DNA from: Deltaproteobacteria bacterium
Lineage (GTDB): Bacteria; Myxococcota; Kuafuiibacteriia; Kuafuiibacteriales; Kuafuiibacteriaceae
Direction of reading: 5' to 3'
Assembly: GCA_040218735.1 (NCBI GenBank)
Contig: JAVJQW010000040.1
Span: 1 to 64,000, forward strand
Length of the DNA stretch: 64,000 nt
A program made the position numbers and the translations under genes. Positions 8,894 to 56,386 of this stretch are shown here, piece by piece. Below the pieces are notes generated by a model. The model was not told the DNA's origin and searched no databases. It saw nothing but the letters and a program-made list of their open reading frames with translations. Position 1 is the stretch's first letter. Each line of letters opens with the position of its first letter.

Positions 8894-9925
8894 TCAGGCC
8901 TCGAAGCCGCTCAGGACGACCTTGCCGCGGGCGCCGCCGCGCTCCAGCAGCGCGTGGGCCTGCCGCAGGTTGTCGGCGGTGATTGCGCCGAGGTTCTGCG
9001 TCATCGTCGTCTTCAGGACGCCGGCGTCGACCAGCGTCGCGACCTCGGCGAGGAGCTTCCCTTGAGCATCGAGATCCGGCGTGCCGAACATCGAGCGGCT
9101 GAACATGAACTCCCAGTGCACCGACAGGCTCTTCCGCTTCATCGGCATCACGTCGAGCGAAGGCGGGTCGTCGATCAAGGCGAGCTCTCCGAACGGCGCG
9201 AGCACGTCGATGAACTGGTCGAGGTACTGGTCGGTGTGCGTCAGGCTCGCGACGTGTGTCACCGCGGGCACGCCGAGGTCCGCGAGTTGGGGTGCCAGCG
9301 GATGTCGATAGTCGACGACGTGATGCGCGCCGAGCGACGTCACCCACTCCCGGCTCGCGGACCGTCCGGCCGTCGCGACGACGGTCGCCCCGGTGAGTCG
9401 TGAAGCGAGCTGCACGAGGATCGATCCCACGCCGCCGGCCGCGCCCGAGATCAAGAGGACGTCGCCTTGGGGCTGCTTGCCCGGCGCAATGTGGAGTCGC
9501 TCGAACAGCAGCTCCCAGGCCGTGATCGCTGTGAGGGGGAGCGCGGCGGCTTCGGCCGCGCCGAGCGAAGTGGGCGCGTGCGAAGCGAGCCGCGCATCGA
9601 CACACTGAAGCGCTGCATTCGAGCCGGGGCGCTCGAGCGCACCCGCGTACCAGACACGTGCCCCGATCTCGAAGCCGCGGACCGATGCACCCGTCGCGAC
9701 CACGGTTCCGACGGCGTCCCACCCGAGCACCCGCGGCGACGTCGGCTTCACACCTCGCCGAATCTTGAAGTCGACCGGGTTGACCGAGACCGCCTCGACC
9801 CGGACCAGCAGGTCGTTCGGCCCCGGCTCGGGCGCCGGCAGCGTCGTCTCGACGAGCGCCTCGGGGTGGTCGATTGGAAGAGGATCGTTGTAGACGATGG
9901 CTTTCATGGAGTTCGTCTCGCTCAT
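8894..9925 (-). CDS. Zinc-type alcohol dehydrogenase-like / NADPH:quinone oxidoreductase (MDR superfamily)
   Basis: [54 protein letters not shown]. Confidence 0.93.
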
Positions 9926-46764: not shown

Positions 46765-47594
46765 TAGAGCGTGATCGACGGATCCGCGTAGCCCTCACCG
46801 ACGACACCGTCCGCGATGGGATAGGAACGTAGCCCCGTCGTGTCCCAGTCGTTGAAGAACGTCCCGTGGGGGTCTTCGTAGACCGAAACGACGAACGTGG
46901 CGCCCCCAGCGTCCCAGCGGGTGTCGATGATCCAAGCGGTCGTCGTCGCGCTCGGCACGACGAGCTCCGAGGACCATTGCACGCCGTCCGCCGACGTCCG
47001 ACAAACGAGGCGACTCCCGGTGCGCGGGTCGGGCATGCCGCCTGCGGTTGCCGCAGAGGGGCTCCCAGTGAAGTGGACCCAACACACGAGATACACGCCG
47101 TCCGGCGCTCGGACCGCGTGCGGCATGAAGTACCAATCGGGTCCCGCGATCGAGCTCGCGCCGCCCGCGGAGCTCAGGAGGAGCTCGACCCCGGCGGAGG
47201 ACGCACGTGAGACGATGGCGTCGGGTGCGCTGTGCTCCACGGGCATTGCTGTGTCGGGCGATGACGAGTCGAACCGAAAGTGGATCGTCACGTTGGGATC
47301 GAGCCCGTCCGGGTACACGTTGGTGCCCTCGGGCCGACCGATGCTGGAGTGCTCGGGGCACGCGTAGCACACGCCTCCGTCATCGCAAGGCACACTCGAG
47401 CAGCCCATGGGTTCGCCAGCATCTTCCTCGCCGATGCTGGCGTCCGATGAGACACCGGCGTCGCGCGATGTCGATGCGTCGACTGGGACGTTGGCGTCTG
47501 GGCCCGTGCGGTTCGAAGGCGGTGCATCGTCGTCCGGACACGCGCTGAGCGCGAGGGCGGCGACGATCATGAACGTACGTTTCACCAGAATCAC
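46761..47594 (-). CDS. Hypothetical lipoprotein
   Basis: GTGA overlap with the upstream stop and GGAGG RBS; AALALSAC lipobox; DAG linker; Cys cluster. Confidence 0.7.
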   Translation of the reverse strand: MILVKRTFMIVAALALSACPDDDAPPSNRTGPDANVPVDASTSRDAGVSSDASIGEEDAGEPMGCSSVPCDDGGVCYACPEHSSIGRPEGTNVYPDGLDPNVTIHFRFDSSSPDTAMPVEHSAPDAIVSRASSAGVELLLSSAGGASSIAGPDWYFMPHAVRAPDGVYLVCWVHFTGSPSAATAGGMPDPRTGSRLVCRTSADGVQWSSELVVPSATTTAWIIDTRWDAGGATFVVSVYEDPHGTFFNDWDTTGLRSYPIADGVVGEGYADPSITLY

Positions 47595-49987
47595 GGTGAG
47601 CCTCCACAGGACGGGCTCGAGTTGTTCGAGCAGAATCGTTCCGCGTAGCCCTCGAATGAGAATGGGCCGATTCGAATCGGTTGAATACTCACATCGGCGC
47701 AGAGGCACCCGCGCAAGTTCTCATCGGTACAACTTAGGCCGATGGGTTGTGCGACGGATCCCTCTACGACGAGGCTTGCGCTCGCGCCTGGGGTCGCGAC
47801 GCTACAGTCGCAGCATGAGCCGCCCGAAAAGGCGCCGTTCGTGCCCCGGCACTGGGAGCATTCGAGCACCCGCTTGATCCATCGAGTACACAATCGCGCA
47901 AAGCCGGAGCCACCGCCGTACACCGCAGCTCCGATCTCGGCGCACACGCCACCACGGCAGTCCGCCGGGGCGTCGCGACCCCGATGCGTAAGGAGTGTTC
48001 CGGCGGCGCGTGCCTCGATGCCAACCTCGTAGGTGAGGCCGATATCGAGCCCGGACCGCTTGCGGATCCTCGACCCACTGACGAAGGCTCCGATCGTCCC
48101 GGAGAGTGTGGCGTGGCAACACTGCGTCGCCGAATCACAGAAGGCGAGCGGGGGCTCCTCGCACCGGAGCGTCGATGAACACGTGCGCTCCAGGCTCAAC
48201 CGCGCGCGCGCTTGAATTGGGGTGGGCGGTATGCGCGCTTCGATGAACCCGGTTGCCATCGACGACTCGCCGCACATGCCGTCGTCGGTTAGCTCGCTAT
48301 CGAGGTCGGTCGATACTCCGATGGCGAAGATCGAGGGAAGCTCTGCCGAGAGCTCGAAGGCTGGCACGACGGCCAGGGGTGGCGGCCCGCCCATCGTACA
48401 CACGGCCGTTCCGTCGACACGTCCGGATGACGGAGCCAAAAGGATGGCCCACTCGGTCGGATTCGTCAGGCTCGCGGAGAAGGCCACCGAGCCCCGATCG
48501 TTGAATCCGGTGGCTCTGCCGTCATTCGTGGAGACGGAACTGGGCGGTGACGGGTTGATGACGGCACGTACGACACCGCCGAAGTCGACGGACTCACCGT
48601 GCATCACGATCGTATCCACCGCGGCGCTGCGTGAAACGAAGAGCCCGCTTCCGTTCGAAGTCCTGGCTCCGAAAGCCAGTTGTCCGCGACGGTTGATCGC
48701 CGGAAGGGTGTCGAGCACGCCCATCGTTTCGCTCGGGTCTCCCGGGGCCGGATCACCCGGAACCCACACGACATCGAGTGTGTTCCCGGGCGGCGCTCCA
48801 TCGAGCGAGTAGCCGACACTTCCTGGTGATCCGGATACGAGGTAGTTCCGCGCGTCGCTCGCTCCGAGCCACGCGACCATTTGGCCGGACCCGTGGGCAT
48901 GACTGCGCGCGCCCACGGATGTGATCGTTGCACCGGTCCCGGATAGTTCTTGCCCCGTGACCAATACCGCATGGCCCGCGCTTGAAACTATGCCATCGCG
49001 GAACTCGAACCCAGAGCTCGTCGGGATTCGCAACTCCGCTGCAAAATACTGGGTGCCGCCGCTCCCGAAGATAGCCGGACCTCGATTGGCGCCCGTCGAG
49101 AGGCTGTAGATGATCGACGGCTCGTCCTCCTCGTTCTTCTTCTTGGCTGGTCGAACTGGAAGTCCGGTAAGCTCATCTCCGACCAAGACACTGGGAGTTG
49201 TTCCTAGGGCGTGGTAGGTCGGGCACGGCGTCGTGCTCGTCTGCACCAGCGCTACGCGATAACCGATGTGCCGGCCGCTGCTCAGTGCGACGTCGTACAA
49301 CGCGGAGACTTCGCAGTTCTCGAAGGGGCCCGGATCTCCGATTTTCAGTACAGGTGAGAGCCCGCCCCCAGAGCTTCGAAAGACGCCGTACTGACCCATC
49401 GCATCCGTTGCCATCATGGCGACGGTTCCGCTCTGGTAGCGAATGAGATCGGAATAGAAGCTCTCGACGTCGGCGCCGCGCCGAGCCATGAGTCGAGCTC
49501 CGCTGGGCGTTCCCTCGAACAGACCGACGGACTGCCCTTCGGGTAGGGCGGGGCCCCTCAGCTGCGCGAAGAAGAGGACGTGGTCATTGCGTCCGGCCCA
49601 TAGACTGTCACCACGGCTGTATTGCGGAAAACTCGCGAAGACTGTGCCGGACTCCGTACCCGGCGCTGGCTCTCCTTCGCGCGCGATGAGTTTGAGATCG
49701 TCACCGACGCATCCGGCTACCCATATCGCCTCATCGTCTTGTCCCACCGTGGGGCCTGATATCGACGCGCGGAATGCGACCCGATCGTCGGGCGACAGCG
49801 CAAAGTTGGCGACGCCGGTAAAGACGGCGCCGTCGGCGGCTGGGAGTTTGGGTTCGTCGAAGGCCGCCATGCCAGGCTCGACCACGATGCAGAGGGGCTC
49901 GGCGGCGGACGACGGCGGACTGACCGTGACAGATGCAGCCACCGCGACGACTGCCAGGGCATGTCCTTCGCGAAACTGCGAGATCAT
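47591..49987 (-). CDS. Secreted protein with NxxGxxAF-type propeller repeats and a Cys-rich C-terminal domain
   Basis: Signal-like N-terminus; LIAREGEPAPG, AINRRGQLAF, FNDRGSVAF; numerous Cys in the last ~270 aa. Confidence 0.75.
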   Translation of the reverse strand: MISQFREGHALAVVAVAASVTVSPPSSAAEPLCIVVEPGMAAFDEPKLPAADGAVFTGVANFALSPDDRVAFRASISGPTVGQDDEAIWVAGCVGDDLKLIAREGEPAPGTESGTVFASFPQYSRGDSLWAGRNDHVLFFAQLRGPALPEGQSVGLFEGTPSGARLMARRGADVESFYSDLIRYQSGTVAMMATDAMGQYGVFRSSGGGLSPVLKIGDPGPFENCEVSALYDVALSSGRHIGYRVALVQTSTTPCPTYHALGTTPSVLVGDELTGLPVRPAKKKNEEDEPSIIYSLSTGANRGPAIFGSGGTQYFAAELRIPTSSGFEFRDGIVSSAGHAVLVTGQELSGTGATITSVGARSHAHGSGQMVAWLGASDARNYLVSGSPGSVGYSLDGAPPGNTLDVVWVPGDPAPGDPSETMGVLDTLPAINRRGQLAFGARTSNGSGLFVSRSAAVDTIVMHGESVDFGGVVRAVINPSPPSSVSTNDGRATGFNDRGSVAFSASLTNPTEWAILLAPSSGRVDGTAVCTMGGPPPLAVVPAFELSAELPSIFAIGVSTDLDSELTDDGMCGESSMATGFIEARIPPTPIQARARLSLERTCSSTLRCEEPPLAFCDSATQCCHATLSGTIGAFVSGSRIRKRSGLDIGLTYEVGIEARAAGTLLTHRGRDAPADCRGGVCAEIGAAVYGGGSGFARLCTRWIKRVLECSQCRGTNGAFSGGSCCDCSVATPGASASLVVEGSVAQPIGLSCTDENLRGCLCADVSIQPIRIGPFSFEGYAERFCSNNSSPSCGGSP

Positions 49988-50060
49988 GTGACCCACGATG
50001 ACATGTTCAGAGATACGCGACCACGCGGGGATCGCCCATCGACGGTGCGGATATCAGAGA

Positions 50061-51029
50061 TCAACTCCGGACGGCGGCGATGGTGTCGCGGATGAGCTGC
50101 GCCATCGCGTCGTTGCCCGCGCCCGAGAGGTGCAGGCCGTCGCCGCCGTCGGTGTTCGCGCCGGCGATCTGGGACCAGTCGGCCACGAACATGTTGGGGC
50201 GGCGCGCGGCTTCCTGCGCGATGACGTCGTTGATGGCGGCGTTGCCGTCGTAATACGACTGGCCGTAGCTCGCGCCGTTCGGGCGTTGGGTTTGGGTGTT
50301 GACCCACACCACCGTCGGCGGCGGGTTCAACGTGGCGAGCTGGTCCATCGTCTCCGGAACGAAGCGCGCGTAGTCGTTGTGGTTGCTGCCGAGCTCGAGG
50401 ACGAGCACGTCGGCGCCGGACTGCTCGGCCATCTGTCGGATCTCTGCGGGGGAGACGTGGTGGCCTGCGCCGCTGCCGTTGATCGCGCGTCCGCCTGCGG
50501 CGTCGATGGTGACGTCGGCGGCGCCCGCGCCGCGCAGAGCGGCTTCGGTCTGCCCGCGCGCGCCGACCATGAGGGAGTCGCCGATGACGTGGACGTCGAG
50601 GTTCTCGAGGCCCTGGCCCGGCGGGAGGTTGGACGCCGCGGTCGGTGCGGCGCTCGGCGCCGTCGTCGGCGCGGGGGCGCCGCCGCTGCCCCAGGAGGTC
50701 GGCTGCGGTCCGTTCGCGAAGCTCGCGCCCGGGAGCTGACCGGCCTGTCGGGGCGCCGCGTCCTGCCGGTGCATGTCGTTCGCGAGGTAGTCGATCAGCA
50801 GGCTCACGAGCGCCGCGGTGGCGAGCGCCTCGAAAAACTGCATCGGGTCCTGCTGCTGCTGAAGCCACGCCTGGATGTCGTCGTCGGGCGCCGCGCCGAT
50901 GGTCGCCTGATCCTCGGGTGCGAAGAGCTGCGGGAGCGTCTGCTCGGCCGGCAGCAGGTCGGCCCACGGCTGCGCGGGGCCCCATAACCAAGGGTTCAGG
51001 ACGCCGAAGTCATTCGCGCGCGAGACCAT
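50061..51029 (-). CDS. SGNH-hydrolase domain protein with low-complexity N-terminal extension
   Basis: VIGDSL, DAAGGR, LELGSN, DGLHL; no signal peptide. Confidence 0.8.
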   Translation of the reverse strand: MVSRANDFGVLNPWLWGPAQPWADLLPAEQTLPQLFAPEDQATIGAAPDDDIQAWLQQQQDPMQFFEALATAALVSLLIDYLANDMHRQDAAPRQAGQLPGASFANGPQPTSWGSGGAPAPTTAPSAAPTAASNLPPGQGLENLDVHVIGDSLMVGARGQTEAALRGAGAADVTIDAAGGRAINGSGAGHHVSPAEIRQMAEQSGADVLVLELGSNHNDYARFVPETMDQLATLNPPPTVVWVNTQTQRPNGASYGQSYYDGNAAINDVIAQEAARRPNMFVADWSQIAGANTDGGDGLHLSGAGNDAMAQLIRDTIAAVRS

Positions 51030-51084
51030 GCCGACACGATGCCGGATGGTGTGGGTGAGTGTCGCTTACGCGGCGAACGTAAGG

Positions 51085-52098
51085 TCAGCGCCAGCCGTCG
51101 AGCGCGCCGGGCTTCACGCGGAGGTACAGCGCGCCGAACGTGTGGATCGCGCTGGTCGCCATCACCACGTGCTCCCCGACGTCGCGCCCCGCGGCGACCG
51201 CCTCGCGGAGGACGACGAACGGGTCCGCTGCGCCGAGGTGGCCGTAGCGGTCGAGCGTGCCGAAGGTTTGCTCGGGACCGAGGCCGATCGTCTCGCGCAC
51301 GGCGGCGATCACCTTGGGGGCGGTCTGGTTCGTGAGCAGGAAGTCGGGTCGCTCGATGCCGGCGGCTTCACACACGTTGCGGATCGAACGCTCGTAGCTC
51401 GTGATGTAGACCGGCTTGAAGACTTCGACGAACTGCTCGCGGTCCGTGCACTGACGGCAGTGCATCCCTTCGCGCAGCGTCTCTTCACTCGGCGGGTTCC
51501 TCGTCCCGCCGGCCGGGATGAAGAAGTAGTCGTTGAGGTGCGGGTACGTGACGAACGACGCCGGCCCGATCTCGATACCTCCGCCCGCCCGCACGACCGC
51601 AGCCGCGCCGCCGTCCGCGTGACCGAGGGCCTGCGCGGGGCGCGTGCGTTCGTAGTCGATCGACGGCGTCCATCGCTCGGCCGCGACGATCAGCGCCGCG
51701 CGCGGTGTCGACGCGCACCACTTCTTCGCGATGTCGAGCCCGGTGAGGCCGCCCGCGCAGCCCGCCGCGAGGTCGTAGCCGAAGCCGTCGCGGATGCCGA
51801 CCTCGTTCATGATCTTCGCGGCCATCGACCACGACGGGACGTAGTCGCGGCTGATGCTCACGCAGATGACGAGCCCAACGTCCTCGGGCGCGACCCCCGC
51901 GTGCTCCAGCGCGCGGCGCGCAGCGGCCGCGCCGATCGTGGAGGGGTGATCGTCGGGGCCGCCAATCGCCTTCTCGCCTAGGCCGAGCTCCTCGCGGAGG
52001 ACCTGCTCGTCGATGCCCGACCGGCGCGCGATCTCCGCGGCGGTCATCCGCCCCTCGGGGACGTGCACTCCGATACCCGCGATGCCGGCGCTCTCCAT
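51085..52098 (-). CDS. 3-oxoacyl-ACP synthase III-like (thiolase fold) with non-canonical active site
   Basis: IAGIGVHVP, YDLAAGCAGG, ADGGAAAVV, LTNQ, YGHLGAAD. Confidence 0.85.
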   Translation of the reverse strand: MESAGIAGIGVHVPEGRMTAAEIARRSGIDEQVLREELGLGEKAIGGPDDHPSTIGAAAARRALEHAGVAPEDVGLVICVSISRDYVPSWSMAAKIMNEVGIRDGFGYDLAAGCAGGLTGLDIAKKWCASTPRAALIVAAERWTPSIDYERTRPAQALGHADGGAAAVVRAGGGIEIGPASFVTYPHLNDYFFIPAGGTRNPPSEETLREGMHCRQCTDREQFVEVFKPVYITSYERSIRNVCEAAGIERPDFLLTNQTAPKVIAAVRETIGLGPEQTFGTLDRYGHLGAADPFVVLREAVAAGRDVGEHVVMATSAIHTFGALYLRVKPGALDGWR

Positions 52099-52134
52099 GG
52101 TCGTGTTCGAGTCTGCGCGGGATCGGACGAAACG

Positions 52135-53388
52135 TCACGCGCCGCCGAAGACACCTTCGGCGAGTGTCCCGGCGCGTTCCATGCGCGGGTGCGCGTCGAC
52201 CTCGCCGAGCAGCGCCTCGGAGGCGAGGACGGTGTCGAGCTCGAGTGTGTTCTTGATGCGCACGATGCGAGCGTCGGCGGGCGCGAGCCCGACGAGCGAC
52301 CTCAGCGCGAGGTCGACCGCGATGCGTTCGGACGGCGCGACCACCGGGAGGCGCCCGGCTTCGATCACCGTCGAGCCGACGACGTTGGTGTACGTCGTCT
52401 TCCAGTCGATCGCTTCGAACAGCCGGTTGGTGATCACGTCGACGAGGCCCACGCCGATCGCGTTGCCGTGGCTCGCTTCGGTGAGTCGCGTGACGACGAT
52501 GCGTTCGATGAACGGCGCGAGCGCGCCGCGGACCGCGCCCTGTTTGCGGTCGGCGACGAGCGCGTCGAAGCCGGCACCGCTGATGTCCTTGCCCATCTCC
52601 TCGATCACGAGGACGTCGAGGCGGTCGAAGAGGAGGCGCCCCATCATCTGGCGGGCGACCTCGAGGAGCTCCGGCTCGCGGTCGAACATCCGCGCGCCCG
52701 CGAGCACCTCCGCGTCGGCGATGTGTCCGTAGGCGTCCTCGACGAGCGCGACGCCGAACAGGAACGGCGTCGCCGCGACGATCGTCTTCGCGACCTCTTC
52801 GAGGACGCCACAGAACGCGTCGGCCGGGACGTTCCCGTGCAGCGTCGACGCGCTCATGCGTTTGCCGGTCCCGACCGCGAGCATCTTCACGAGCCCGCTC
52901 TCGACGCGGCCGTGGAAGTGCGTGTGCGGTTTGATGCGGTTGACGAGGACGATGCCGTCGGCGTCGAGCGCCTCCGCGCCGACGTGTACGTCGAGGCCGC
53001 GCACCTGGCCGACGACCTTCGTGTCCATCGTGGCGCGGACCGGCGCGCCGACGGAGACCTCGTCGACGCCGAGCGCGGCGAGCACTTCGATCTGGCCGTC
53101 CGCGGTCGCGGCGCCGTGGGTGCCCATCGCGGGGAAGACAAACGGCTCGGCACCGGCGCGTTTCAGCTGTTCGACGACGGCGCCGACGATCGAAGCGATG
53201 CCCGGGATGCCGCGGCTGCCCACGCCGACGGCGATACGTCCTGCGGCCTTCGGCTGCAGCGCGCCGATCTGCTCGGCGATGTGCCGCGCCGGATCTTCGA
53301 GCTCACGGCGTTCGAACGTCTGACGCACCGAGGCCATGCGCGGCAGCGCGCGCGGCGCGCCCCAGTCGAGATCGAGATCGGCGAACAC
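52135..53388 (-). CDS. LarA-like (lactate racemase domain / DUF2088-type) protein
   Basis: IAVGVGSRGI, PAMGTHG, NRIKPHT.F.G..ESGLVKM.AVG.GK, GKDISGAG.D, SHGNAIG.G. Confidence 0.8.
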   Translation of the reverse strand: MFADLDLDWGAPRALPRMASVRQTFERRELEDPARHIAEQIGALQPKAAGRIAVGVGSRGIPGIASIVGAVVEQLKRAGAEPFVFPAMGTHGAATADGQIEVLAALGVDEVSVGAPVRATMDTKVVGQVRGLDVHVGAEALDADGIVLVNRIKPHTHFHGRVESGLVKMLAVGTGKRMSASTLHGNVPADAFCGVLEEVAKTIVAATPFLFGVALVEDAYGHIADAEVLAGARMFDREPELLEVARQMMGRLLFDRLDVLVIEEMGKDISGAGFDALVADRKQGAVRGALAPFIERIVVTRLTEASHGNAIGVGLVDVITNRLFEAIDWKTTYTNVVGSTVIEAGRLPVVAPSERIAVDLALRSLVGLAPADARIVRIKNTLELDTVLASEALLGEVDAHPRMERAGTLAEGVFGGA

Positions 53389-53390
53389 GG

Positions 53391-53924
53391 CTACAGCTCT
53401 AACAGGCGTTCGACCCCTTCGACGATCTGCTCGGCGCGTCGTTCGAGGAGCGCGTCGGAGACGTTCTGGATCGGGTGGTCGAGGACGATGCGCGGGAACG
53501 TCGCCTCGGGGCGCCAGTGGGAGAGGTGGCGCTCGAGCACGTCGACGAACGGCTCCGTCACGACGACGACCGCCGCTGCGCCTTTCAGGTGAAGTTGAAC
53601 CGCGTCGAGCGAACCGCCCGCTGAGCAGCTCCCTCAGTCGAAGACGCCGAGGATCAGGAGGCCCTGCTCCTCGGCGATGCGCTCCAGGGTGTGGTCGCTC
53701 TCGCGACGGGTGATGCGCGCCTTCTTCGTGAGCCCGGTGATCTTCACGCCGCGCGCTTCGAGGCGGCGGCCGACGTCGTCCAGGATGCGGCGCGAGTTGG
53801 GTTTGCCGGAGTCGACGAAGTGCACCTCGCGGGTGTTCTTCGGCGTGTGAATCGGGAGCGGACGCGGGCGCGGCGTGGGGTTCGGATCGATCAGGATCTC
53901 ACACTGCGGTTCGAAGTCGCGCAT
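53391..53924 (-). CDS. UGSC-family selenoprotein, 177 aa, Sec at TGA 53634..53636
   Basis: ..LILGVFD-TGA-GSCSAGGSLDAVQLHLKGAAAVVVVTEPFVD..RIVLDHPIQN..RRAEQIVEGVERLLEL*; the frame stays open to a TAG 2 nt before the next gene; DSGKPNS motif upstream. Confidence 0.88.
53597..53631 (-). promoter_or_regulatory. Bacterial SECIS-like hairpin
   Basis: After the UGA: lower stem GAGCUGC/GCGGUUC, upper stem CGGGC/GCUCG, apical GGUUC starting at +19. Confidence 0.75.
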
Positions 53925-53931
53925 CAGCAGG

Positions 53932-54969
53932 TCACCGAGTCCGGTCCATGATGAAGACCTCCGCGTCCGGTCGCAACTCGACGGCGTGGGTGATGTTGCC
54001 GACCCACCCCGGGATCACCGCGGAGAACTTCCCCGCGGCGCCGCCGGACTCGAGGAACGTGAGCTGCTCGTAGGACCGCAGCGGCGAGCGCGGCGCTTCG
54101 GGGTCGACGGACATCCGTGGATCCGGATCGGCGGGGACCCGACCGAGTCGAACCAGCTCCGGGCCGGGGCGCTTCGAGTGTTCGAAGACGAAACGCCGCG
54201 CGTCGTCGCGATCGAAGGCCTCGCAGATCAGGCTCGCGTGCTCGGGTGCGAGCACGACGGTGTAGCCGCCCGTCTGCCAGTAGAAGTTGGTGGAGCCGTA
54301 GTGGGCGATCGTCCCGGCGATCGTCTCGAGGAGTATCTCGGCGCTCGACGCGTAGTGGTTGTTGACGCTGTTCGGCCCCTCCGCGGCGGTGATGGTGATC
54401 GCGGATTGCTCGGGGTCGAGGCCGAACTGATCGTGATACCGCGTCCACCGCGTCTGTTCGTGCTCCGCGACGCAGAACGAGATGCGCCCCGGGTGACCCA
54501 GCACGCCGAATTCTTCGAGGATGCCGCCGGCGCGCCCGCAGAAGTGACGCACCATGTTCGCGAAGCGCCCGACGGTGAGGTTGATGCGCGCGCTGCCGCC
54601 GAGGGTGTTCGCGCCGCTCGCGAAGCCGAGCTCTTGGACGATCGGCCCGCTGACGATCACCAACACCGCGCACCCGCCGGTCGTGACGGCGACGCCGTTG
54701 ATGTTGAAGCTCGGCGCGAGCAACAGCCGAGTGAGCGGGCGTAGCACCGGCGCGTATTCGTCGCGGCACCCAGCCATCACGGCGATCGCCGCGACCTGGA
54801 TCGCGCGCACTTCGAGCCCGTAGTCGTCGAGCTCGACGAGGGTCTCGGTCGCCGACCACCCCAGCGCCGCGAGCATCGATTCGACGCGGCTCCCGTAGGG
54901 CGGGACGACCGGGAGGCCGTCGCTCCACCCGCGTTCGAAGCAGGCTTCGATGTCGTTGTCGAGCGCCAC
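53932..54969 (-). CDS. Conserved GWxDGLPVVPP protein (usual neighbour of UGSC proteins)
   Basis: RGWSDGLPVVPP, AVMAGC..EY.PVL, VTTG...LVIVSGPI, N.TVGR, LGHPG..SFCVAE; GTG start. Confidence 0.82.
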   Translation of the reverse strand: MALDNDIEACFERGWSDGLPVVPPYGSRVESMLAALGWSATETLVELDDYGLEVRAIQVAAIAVMAGCRDEYAPVLRPLTRLLLAPSFNINGVAVTTGGCAVLVIVSGPIVQELGFASGANTLGGSARINLTVGRFANMVRHFCGRAGGILEEFGVLGHPGRISFCVAEHEQTRWTRYHDQFGLDPEQSAITITAAEGPNSVNNHYASSAEILLETIAGTIAHYGSTNFYWQTGGYTVVLAPEHASLICEAFDRDDARRFVFEHSKRPGPELVRLGRVPADPDPRMSVDPEAPRSPLRSYEQLTFLESGGAAGKFSAVIPGWVGNITHAVELRPDAEVFIMDRTR

Positions 54970-54982
54970 GGTCGTCGCGTCG

Positions 54983-55016
54983 ATTATGACTTCTCGGCTC
55001 CCCCAGTCCAATGGAC
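54983..55016 (-). promoter_or_regulatory. Sigma70-like promoter with palindromic operator
   Basis: TTGGAC-17-CATAAT on the minus strand; palindrome GTCCA-A-TGGAC (55006..55016) overlaps the -35. Confidence 0.6.
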
Positions 55017-55041
55017 GACGTTCTGCGGTAGGCTGCGCGCG

Positions 55042-55734
55042 ATGCGCACCGTGACGATCGCCGACCGCTTCCGAGGCCCGCCCGACTCTGCAAACGGCGG
55101 GTATGCGTGCGGCGTGGTCGCTGCGGCGCTCGAGACGTCCGAGCCCGTGCAGGTCACGCTGCGGAGCCCGCCTCCGTTGGATACGCCGCTGTCGATCGTC
55201 GAGGTCGAGGGCGGTGTTGAGATGAAACACGGTGAGACAGTCGTCGCCGAAGGGCGTACGAGCACGCTCGATCTCGAGGTGCCGGCGGCCGTGGATCGCG
55301 CGACGGCCGAGGTCGCGCAGAAGAACTTCGTCGGGTTCGAGAACCACTTCCTCCCGACGTGTTTTGTGTGCGGAACGAAGCACGAGCAAGACGGCTTGCG
55401 CATCTTCCCCGGGCGCGTCGAAGGGCGCGAGCTCGCGGCGGCTCCGTGGGATCCGACGCCGGACCTCTACGAAGGCGGGCGCATCGCGTCGGTGTTCATG
55501 TGGTCGGCGCTGGACTGCCCGTCGTGCTTCGGCGCGTTCATCACCGAGCCGGTGCTGCTCGGACGACTCGTCGCGCAGATCGACGAGCGGCCGCCCCAGG
55601 GGGAGAAGCTCGTCGCGGTGGGGTGGCCCATCGAGCGCGACGGGCGAAAGATCTTCGCGGGCTCGGCGATCTTCGGCGAGGACGGTCGGGTCTTGGGGAA
55701 GGCGTTCGCGACCTGGATCGCGTTCAAGCGCTGA
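55042..55734 (+). CDS. Double hotdog-fold thioesterase-like protein
   Basis: RFRGPPDSANGGYACG, VTLRSPPPLD, CFVCG, WSALDCP, GRKIFAGSA. Confidence 0.85.
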   Translation: MRTVTIADRFRGPPDSANGGYACGVVAAALETSEPVQVTLRSPPPLDTPLSIVEVEGGVEMKHGETVVAEGRTSTLDLEVPAAVDRATAEVAQKNFVGFENHFLPTCFVCGTKHEQDGLRIFPGRVEGRELAAAPWDPTPDLYEGGRIASVFMWSALDCPSCFGAFITEPVLLGRLVAQIDERPPQGEKLVAVGWPIERDGRKIFAGSAIFGEDGRVLGKAFATWIAFKR

Positions 55735-55735
55735 C

Positions 55736-56386
55736 TCACTTCCGCTTCGTCGCCTTCTTCTTCGTGACCTTCTTCTTCGCGGTCCTCTTCTTCGTCGGCG
55801 GGTGGAACGACTCGCCGCACGCGAGCATCTGCACGAACTTCGCGATCTTCTTCTCCCGGGCCTCGGGTTTGATCGCATCGTGGATCCGGTAGAGGAACGC
55901 GAAGCGGTTGTTGCGGTCGATCGCTTCGAACGCCGCCTTCGCCTTCTTGTTGGCGTCGAGCGCCGCGGCGAAGTCATCGGGGACCTGGATCGTGGAGTGG
56001 GAGTCGTACGCGCGCTCCCAGCGCCCATCCGCCTTCGCCGCTTCGACCTGGGCGAGCCCCGCCTTGCGCATCTTCTTCTTCGCGATCAGCTCCTCGGCGA
56101 TCCCGCGGTTGATCTTGGACCACTTGCTCCGCTTGCGGCGCGGGGTGACGCGGATGATGAAGTAGTCGTCGTCCCAGGTCTTTCGCTGCCCGTCGATCCA
56201 CCCGTACATCAGCGCGCCCTCGCGCGTTTGTTCGTAGGTGATGGTGCGAACGTCCCGCCCCTTCTTGCCCAGTTTGACCCACAGCCCCGCGTCGCGTGTG
56301 TGCTCTACGCGCAGCCAGGCCACCCACGCGGCCATGGTCGCGAAGGCGATGACCTCCAGGTCTTTGTGCGTTTCGGTCTCGGGCAT
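55736..56386 (-). CDS. YdeI/OmpD-associated family protein with Lys-rich tail
   Basis: ALMYGWIDG, TPRRKRSKWSKIN, AKADGRW, VPDDF..AL; tail KKRTAKKKVTKKKATKRK. Confidence 0.9.
   Translation of the reverse strand: MPETETHKDLEVIAFATMAAWVAWLRVEHTRDAGLWVKLGKKGRDVRTITYEQTREGALMYGWIDGQRKTWDDDYFIIRVTPRRKRSKWSKINRGIAEELIAKKKMRKAGLAQVEAAKADGRWERAYDSHSTIQVPDDFAAALDANKKAKAAFEAIDRNNRFAFLYRIHDAIKPEAREKKIAKFVQMLACGESFHPPTKKRTAKKKVTKKKATKRK

Follow-up and report, generated by a model that had tools for sequence, protein, structure and literature searches.

The question raised by the 64,000-nucleotide (nt) stretch of DNA analyzed here (contig JAVJQW010000040.1, positions 1 to 64,000, from a Deltaproteobacteria bacterium; hereafter the window) is whether four genes standing side by side, which encode a UGSC-family selenoprotein, an unnamed partner protein, a LarA-like enzyme, and an atypical KAS III, form one conserved pathway. 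According to open reading frame (ORF) calls, positions 51085-54969 of the minus strand consist of four co-oriented genes in the order partner, UGSC, LarA-like, and KAS III-like, separated by 7 nt (partner/UGSC), 2 nt (UGSC/LarA-like), and 36 nt (LarA-like/KAS). The same gaps, already reported in an initial annotation of this DNA, are found in both the ORF list and the sequence, and the four gene identities proposed there are borne out by profile matches and alignments. The four-gene order itself, whose absence elsewhere the initial annotation had named as a refutation, is not conserved: the LarA-like gene is found in 0/68 partner loci and the partner, UGSC, and KAS genes in 0/80 loci of relatives of the LarA-like gene. 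What is conserved is very likely a core of partner, UGSC, and KAS, in which the LarA-like gene is a lineage-specific insertion between UGSC and KAS. At a probability of roughly 0.5, we favor a reading in which this species has elaborated a widespread three-gene selenoenzyme module, whose substrates would be a 2-hydroxy or 2-oxo acid and its thioester.

The conservation of gene order was assessed in 68 partner loci on one-genome-per-species contigs, which were retrieved via two peptide patterns from close homologs and hence sample one subfamily. These loci come from Gamma-, Beta-, and Alphaproteobacteria, Myxococcota, Actinomycetota, Acidobacteriota, Binatia, and others, including several metagenome-assembled genomes (MAGs), and their neighbors were detected by tblastn with the window proteins (E≤1e-5), related genomes not being independent. 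UGSC lies beside the partner in 61/68 loci, and KAS is present in 56/68. In 55 of the 61 partner-UGSC loci there is also a KAS, arranged as partner>UGSC>KAS in 47, as KAS>partner>UGSC in 3, divergently in 4, and convergently in 1; locus L063 has KAS with no UGSC match because its contig ends there. As for the six pairs without KAS, one is cut off where its contig stops, UGSC is truncated and adjoins selA in two, nothing lies within 8 kb in another, and the remaining two are distant Bacillota pairs in which the order is UGSC>partner. In L055 and L059 (~9084-9251), UGSC is detectable only over its first ~56 residues and is then followed by selA on the opposite strand, which suggests that the gene has probably decayed there and that KAS was lost too. 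Median identity to the window proteins across loci is 54% for the partner, 38% for UGSC, and 33% for KAS. In the same tblastn searches, the LarA-like gene, the hotdog-like gene that is divergent from the module, and both flanking genes were each found in 0/68 loci, as was canonical LarA when used as query. Of the two genes that the initial annotation had expected to co-occur with UGSC, the KAS III-like one therefore does so, while the LarA-like one does not.

The survey was also done from the opposite side. The LarA-like protein belongs to what NCBIfam names "nickel pincer cofactor-dependent isomerase, group 22," and we examined 80 metagenome loci (617 kb), the best of at least 585 group-22 relatives among at least 599 pattern matches. 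Partner, UGSC, and KAS were found in none of these 80 loci. The most frequent neighbors of group 22 in them are SDR genes (9/80), followed by canonical LarA, 2-Hacid_dh, and ATP-binding cassette (ABC) transporter ATPase clusters (6/80 each). Among 61 related genomes, the group-22 gene is present in one, the window's own, and UGSC in four; it is absent from the three module-bearing genomes that were searched (Rhodocyclaceae, Nocardia, and Luminiphilus records). Group-22 genes thus appear to have no fixed partner, canonical LarA (with Lar_N and LarA_C) adjoining them in 6 of the 80 loci examined, and one locus (L079) seems to carry two tandem group-22 copies.

The arrangement in the window is nevertheless real. 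The region 51000-55800 is covered gaplessly and without indels by single contigs from two other studies, one of 69,051 nt (X2) that shows 53 differences from the window over this interval and one of 51,158 nt (X10) that shows 193. Being bridged by two independent contigs, the gene arrangement does not stem from misassembly, and close relatives share it.

The selenoprotein gene lies at 53391-53924 (minus strand) and encodes a 177-residue protein with a Sec97-Gly-Ser-Cys100 motif, where Sec is selenocysteine. Its frame is open over this interval only if the in-frame TGA at 53634-53636 (minus strand), which is codon 97 in the context ...GVFD-U-GSCSAGG..., is read as Sec, genetic code table 11 yielding instead two ORFs of 96 and 56 residues. 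The protein matches Pfam PF24696 over residues 26-175 with 90.7 bits (cut-off 25), but it scores only 79.9 bits with the stricter, equivalog-level NCBIfam model NF041046 (cut-off 125), and it therefore represents a divergent subfamily. The codon aligned to Sec in 61 orthologs is TGA in 51, TGC in 7, and TGT in 1, the motif being missing in 2, and the ortholog alignment shows conservation on both sides of the TGA. The genome encodes selA, selB, selD, and tRNA-Sec. The selD match (genome contig C18:152317-153240, outside the window) has one in-frame TGA as well, so SelD is itself probably a selenoprotein in this organism. In the predicted structure (predicted local distance difference test, pLDDT, 90), UGSC adopts a flavodoxin-like fold with its U-x-x-C at a strand-to-helix junction; its structural matches are generic (template modeling, TM, score ~0.46).

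Thirteen nt past the TGA begins a hairpin resembling a selenocysteine insertion sequence (SECIS), at 53605-53621 (minus strand), with 6 pairs and the 5-nt loop GGUUC. When 22 orthologs were folded together using RNAalifold, each of the six pairs was standard in 20-22 of them, and three pairs were changed on both sides. Folded as a single sequence, the hairpin is no better than shuffles (z -0.9). Counting from the U of UGA, positions 23 and 24 are G and U in the window, in keeping with the rule for the SECIS of Escherichia coli fdhF. From Gammaproteobacteria to Actinomycetota, the 30 nt that follow the Sec codon are almost the same, even at third codon positions.

As for the KAS III-fold protein (51085-52098, minus strand, 337 residues), it matches the Pfam domains ACP_syn_III (38.6 bits) and ACP_syn_III_C (41.7 bits), both above cut-off, and falls short of the cut-offs of all curated NCBIfam FabH models (114.9 vs. 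292 bits for TIGR00747 and 116.5 vs. 249 bits for NF006829). Alignment with solved FabH chains shows where the two differ. The nucleophilic Cys is kept, but the His of FabH is replaced by an Asn (in TNQTA) and the Asn of FabH by a His (in YGHLGA), giving a Cys/Asn/His triad in which the last two positions are exchanged. The Cys is present in 57/57 aligned ortholog rows in an A-x-C-x-G context, and the swapped Asn and His in 55/57, the other two rows being cut by contig ends, i.e., in 55/55 full-length module orthologs. Since this triad is invariant across module orthologs, the window protein is, judging from the alignments, a true member of a module-specific clade. It has the KAS III fold, the two Pfam domains, and the nucleophilic Cys in common with FabH, but the exchanged positions and the failed FabH models make the name FabH unsuitable. 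None of the 13 NCBIfam matches of this protein is to a glycine-reductase family.

The partner (53932-54969, minus strand) is a 345-residue protein of an unnamed family with a GTG start. This start, at 54969, is the most likely one, in agreement with the database cluster P0002 and with the N-termini of 24 homologs. The protein carries the motifs GWSDGLPVVPPY, VMAGC, VTTGG, GHPGR, AEH, and EGPNSVNNHY, and no family was matched in Pfam or NCBIfam, even though 1468 relatives were found at E≤0.001 among the 8000 candidates scored. Its AlphaFold2 model (pLDDT 83) has no convincing structural relative, and a search of its profile against solved structures found none (best E 0.59). We considered whether it could be a [4Fe-4S] hydro-lyase, given a likeness to class I fumarases, and rejected this candidate on fold, profile, and Cys conservation. 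The best Foldseek matches of the model are indeed class I fumarate hydratases (E 1.2e-4), but with TM scores of only 0.28/0.20. VIA-align against 48,161 chains gave nothing above Z 7.0, the fumarase alpha subunit reaching Z 6.4 over one domain, and hhalign of the partner profile against nine class I fumarases gave a probability of 0.2%. Moreover, fused paralogs of the partner (L175 and L179, described below) keep only Cys68, the Cys of VMAGC, while Cys10 and Cys144 are not conserved.

The remaining gene of the row, at 52135-53388 (minus strand), encodes the 417-residue LarA-superfamily enzyme. It matches the group-22 model NF052515 with 453.1 bits (cut-off 400). In Pfam, DUF362 is above its cut-off (30.3 bits), Lar_N stays below (17.4 bits, cut-off 23.3), and there is no LarA_C match. 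Across 23 homologs, residues H91, H155, K168, and H184 never vary; they align with GLH/EPH/GGRK/TFH of canonical LarA, with an hhalign probability of only 45% (E 2e-4). These four residues may play the roles of their counterparts in L. plantarum LarA, namely two catalytic His, a cofactor-tethering Lys, and a Ni-binding His. A search of solved structures with the profile of these homologs gave no match at E≤0.01. The check for larB, larC, and larE proposed in the initial annotation turned up all three in the genome, larB adjoining larC on contig C28 and larE being on contig C70, together with two further Lar_N genes elsewhere. The window protein thus resembles canonical LarA in the aligned His/His/Lys/His tetrad, the above-cut-off NF052515 match, and the presence of larB/larC/larE, but it is very distant from it, with Lar_N sub-threshold, LarA_C undetected, and DUF362 above cut-off. 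The enzyme probably racemizes or epimerizes 2-hydroxy acids with a nickel-pincer cofactor. The label "group 22" is absent from the main text of two LarA-superfamily papers and is therefore NCBIfam's own.

How far the module extends within the UGSC family became clear from a wider search. In the order around one module-bearing genome (G061), 31/301 genomes, a tally that includes one unpublished genome (G268), have UGSC matches, and eight of them have at least 11 each, which implies very large selenoproteomes built from one family. Nearly all UGSC matches in these expanded genomes have one in-frame TGA. Most paralogs there score 140-195 bits, while the module type scores ~83-93 bits. In 14 paralog loci, which were hand-picked and are no random sample, a gene of the partner family (29-36% identity) stands beside UGSC in 13. 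In some cases, the two are fused: L175:5060-6661 and L179:5073-6680 encode proteins of ~530 residues with UGSC at the N terminus, read through a single TGA, and the same fused frame is found in L176 and L180. A search for partner relatives longer than 605 residues found none, which is weak evidence, fusions of ~530-600 residues being known to exist. Since 13/14 paralog loci pair or fuse the two, the partner-UGSC pair is, as far as gene neighborhoods go, a general unit, and KAS defines one subfamily. Neighbors in the 14 loci include TctC-type carboxylate receptors (5/14), CoA-transferase III, AMP-ligase, enoyl-CoA hydratase, beta-hydroxyacid dehydrogenase, and MmgE/PrpD.

Compared with the UGSC family as described (PF24696/NF041046), the window protein is alike in its U/C-G-S-C motif, its Pfam match, the alternation of Sec and Cys, and pairing or fusion with one unnamed domain. 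It differs in scoring below the NF041046 cut-off and in its association with a KAS III-fold gene, which the 14 paralog loci lack. In aquatic metagenomes, UGSC ranks with the selenoprotein families of highest abundance according to the 2008 Global Ocean Sampling (GOS) paper (Zhang & Gladyshev 2008, PMC2398784), which also mentions a fusion of UGSC with a domain termed "Unknown_1." This domain may be our partner. The function of UGSC is still listed as unknown in a 2026 review (PMC13188914), and no KAS III neighbor is mentioned in the passages on UGSC that were consulted, those of these two papers among them.

What might the module act on? The genes that accompany the core in the 68 partner loci are selB (18), selA (15), a PucR-type regulator (15), AMP-ligase (13), and a major facilitator superfamily (MFS) transporter (11), which scores best against the L-lactate MFS model, under that model's cut-off. 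In addition, 2-Hacid_dh, i.e., D-2-hydroxyacid dehydrogenase, is found in 10/68 loci, nine of them with the partner-UGSC pair, and in at least five arrangements. In one Phytohabitans locus (L017), this dehydrogenase gene lies between UGSC and KAS, in the same slot as LarA in the window, the UGSC-KAS gap of 1178 nt being the only gene-sized one among the 47 partner>UGSC>KAS loci. The two distant Bacillota pairs adjoin beta-hydroxyacid dehydrogenase or SDR genes. Because D-2-hydroxyacid dehydrogenases and lactate-type MFS transporters recur, and one of the former occupies the LarA slot, we tentatively propose, at a little under even odds, that the substrate of the module is a 2-hydroxy or 2-oxo monocarboxylic acid. 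The theme of acyl or hydroxy-acid thioester chemistry put forward in the initial annotation is therefore partly retained: dehydrogenases and sub-cut-off lactate-type transporters do recur, but LarA is not integral to the conserved unit. We count the neighboring genes as moderate evidence both for this class of substrate and for the LarA-like enzyme being a local add-on that sets the stereochemistry of the substrate. In the 64-kb window itself, none of the usual accessory genes of the module (2-Hacid_dh, selA, selB, PucR-type regulator, AMP ligase) was found at E≤1e-6, nor were CoA-transferase III, thiolase, or the module's MFS type.

The composition of the trio invites comparison with the selenoenzymes glycine/sarcosine/betaine reductase and D-proline reductase (Grd/Prd). 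In glycine reductase, protein C contains a thiolase/KAS III-like subunit on which the acyl moiety is held in thioester linkage, and thioredoxin serves as the reductant. The module, which has a UxxC selenoprotein and a Cys-bearing KAS-fold protein, may work in a similar way, with a separate substrate-activating subunit. In contrast, UGSC and the partner have no match to GRDB (PF07355) or Gly_reductase (PF09338) in Pfam at E≤0.01, so that their sequences place them outside the Grd/Prd families. By analogy, the following mechanism can be envisaged, which we consider unlikely, although not far-fetched. The group-22 enzyme would turn the "wrong" hydroxy-acid enantiomer into the usable one, and nothing more. 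The partner, whose Cys68 (of VMAGC) is kept even in fusions, would bind and activate the acid, and the Sec97 selenolate of UGSC would attach covalently to its alpha-carbon or carbonyl. Resolution of this adduct by Cys100 would yield a Se-S bond, the acyl product would be captured as a thioester on the Cys of KAS, and the thioredoxin system would re-reduce the Se-S bond. A broader formulation of the analogy, in which the trio would be a Grd-like, thioredoxin-driven selenoenzyme of mostly aerobic bacteria, we hold to be speculative and unlikely. In it, the Sec/Cys pair of UGSC would be a protein-borne carrier, comparable to selenoprotein A or a lipoyl arm, that picks up a group from the partner-activated acid and passes an acyl group to the KAS Cys, and LarA group 22 and 2-Hacid_dh would be interchangeable feeders of substrate. 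In one Bacillota MAG that has a distant UGSC-partner pair, genes of the GRDB and Gly_reductase families stand beside an aldehyde dehydrogenase gene (L186, G365:C81, 4507-7226). The GRDB match contains no stop codon, and the 8-kb contig has no protein C genes; it may represent a non-canonical Grd/Prd-like system.

Several points weigh against the reading of the locus as an elaborated hydroxy-acid or oxo-acid module. A hydroxy-acid dehydrogenase is present in only ~15% of module loci, the majority of which consist of the trio alone or with selA/selB and regulators, which makes the substrate assignment thin. KAS is found in 0/14 of the hand-picked paralog loci, so that sister subfamilies do without it, and the likeness to Grd is one of composition only (a UxxC selenoprotein, an uncharacterised catalytic subunit, and a thiolase-fold Cys protein). 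Many hosts look aerobic by name, for which a Grd-like energy-conserving role would not be obvious. The 68 loci sample one subfamily, in part from genomes that are not independent of each other. Finally, group 22 is otherwise never near the module, so the LarA-like gene could be a passenger. A reading in which it is one, and in which the trio is unconnected to hydroxy acids and serves, for example, in thiol/selenol redox chemistry or detoxification with a non-acyl role for KAS, would fit the 58/68 module loci that have no 2-Hacid_dh match. Such an explanation, which is consistent with the variable neighbors of group 22 elsewhere (SDR in 9 of 80; LarA, 2-Hacid_dh, and ABC ATPase in 6 each) and with UxxC motifs being typical of redox proteins (PMC2398784), is in our view unlikely, albeit the most serious of the alternatives. 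It leaves aside the D-2-hydroxyacid dehydrogenase that occupies the very UGSC-KAS slot in L017, the at least five arrangements in which such genes occur, and the lactate-type MFS transporter in 11/68 loci. It also sits poorly with sister subfamilies being found among CoA-transferase III, AMP-ligase, enoyl-CoA hydratase, and TctC carboxylate-receptor genes, and with an acyl-accepting Cys kept in 57/57 KAS rows.

The acyl chemistry could conversely be biosynthetic, with KAS performing a Claisen-type condensation whose product (a lipid, a signal, or a natural product) is reduced or tailored by partner and UGSC. The fold and the Pfam domains are those of condensing enzymes, and Asn and His, although exchanged, are both kept, which may leave an oxyanion or decarboxylation site in place. 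Yet no acyl carrier protein (ACP), malonyl-transferase, or other biosynthetic gene is among the conserved neighbors, which are transporters, regulators, selA/selB, and catabolic acyl-CoA enzymes, and the FabH models all remain far under their cut-offs. We regard this possibility as quite unlikely. Improbable is the notion of an obligate four-gene, Se- and Ni-dependent pathway in which LarA is integral and the hotdog gene a fifth member. The tight spacing of the genes (7, 2, and 36 nt) downstream of a single promoter-like site, the indel-free order in two independent contigs (53 and 193 differences over ~4.8 kb), and the presence of larB, larC, and larE would all fit it, but the surveys do not: LarA group 22, the hotdog gene, and canonical LarA are each at 0/68, the three core genes are at 0/80 on the group-22 side, group 22 is in 0/3 module-bearing genomes and in 1/61 relatives (the window's own genome), and the two other Lar_N genes can account for the lar cofactor genes. 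Hardly credible, in turn, is the idea that translation really ends at the TGA and that the supposed UGSC gene consists of two small unrelated ORFs. Table 11 splits the frame accordingly (96 and 56 residues) and the hairpin on its own folds no better than shuffles; against this, the protein is conserved across the TGA, the codon is one for Cys in 8 orthologs and TGA in 51, the Pfam match covers residues 26-175, and a full Sec machinery is present together with a conserved hairpin past the TGA. The elaborated three-gene module thus remains the reading that we prefer.

The tight association of one UGSC subfamily with a KAS III-fold protein whose active site is rebuilt provides a concrete three-protein set to reconstitute, and its neighbors suggest candidate substrates, namely 2-hydroxy and 2-oxo monocarboxylates and thioesters. 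If true, a Grd-like trio would give a first function to an orphan selenoprotein that is one of the commonest in aquatic metagenomes. Natural Cys variants in isolates (Phytohabitans, Pandoraea, and Nocardia) would permit expression without Sec machinery. Two further implications are that the module KAS should not be named FabH in databases, and that an orphan LarA group gains a possible physiological context, in this species only.

Upstream of the module, the partner start at 54969 is 72 nt away from a divergent 230-residue gene (55042-55734, plus strand). This gene, which lies outside the conserved module, has no match in Pfam or NCBIfam, including 4HBT or related families. In the ESM Atlas, the clusters closest to it bear the automatic names thioesterase or PaaI, and just 11% of their members have 4HBT; it is probably a PaaI/hotdog-type thioesterase, the automatic names being a lead only. 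A back-to-back hotdog gene had been claimed in the initial annotation: a divergent gene is indeed there, but the hotdog assignment comes from auto-names only, and with 0/68 loci the gene is not part of the module. The intergenic region contains a sigma-70-like promoter candidate (54983-55010, minus strand; TGGACT-16 nt-CATAAT), a consensus match only, which is the single such site in 5 kb, compared with 0.1 expected from shuffles. Its -10 element ends 14 nt ahead of the GTG start, which would give a very short leader. Overlapping the -35 element is a weak 5+1+5 palindrome, GTCCATTGGAC, at 55006-55016, which was read by eye. A repeat search with seed 6 reported only another palindrome (55026-55051, 75% complementary) and not GTCCATTGGAC. 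Consequently, while the single promoter previously proposed for the four genes has a matching promoter-like site, the palindromic operator said to accompany it was rejected as a strong feature, the palindrome being at most weakly unusual.

An Rfam scan of 50900-56000 gave two sub-threshold chance matches and nothing else. On the other side of the module, an 801-residue protein encoded at 47591-49996 (minus strand) contains DUF7453 and NxxGxxAF repeats, with a C-terminal third that is very Cys-rich. Its gene sits just downstream of a GDSL-like hydrolase gene (50061-51029), and it appears to be unrelated to the module.

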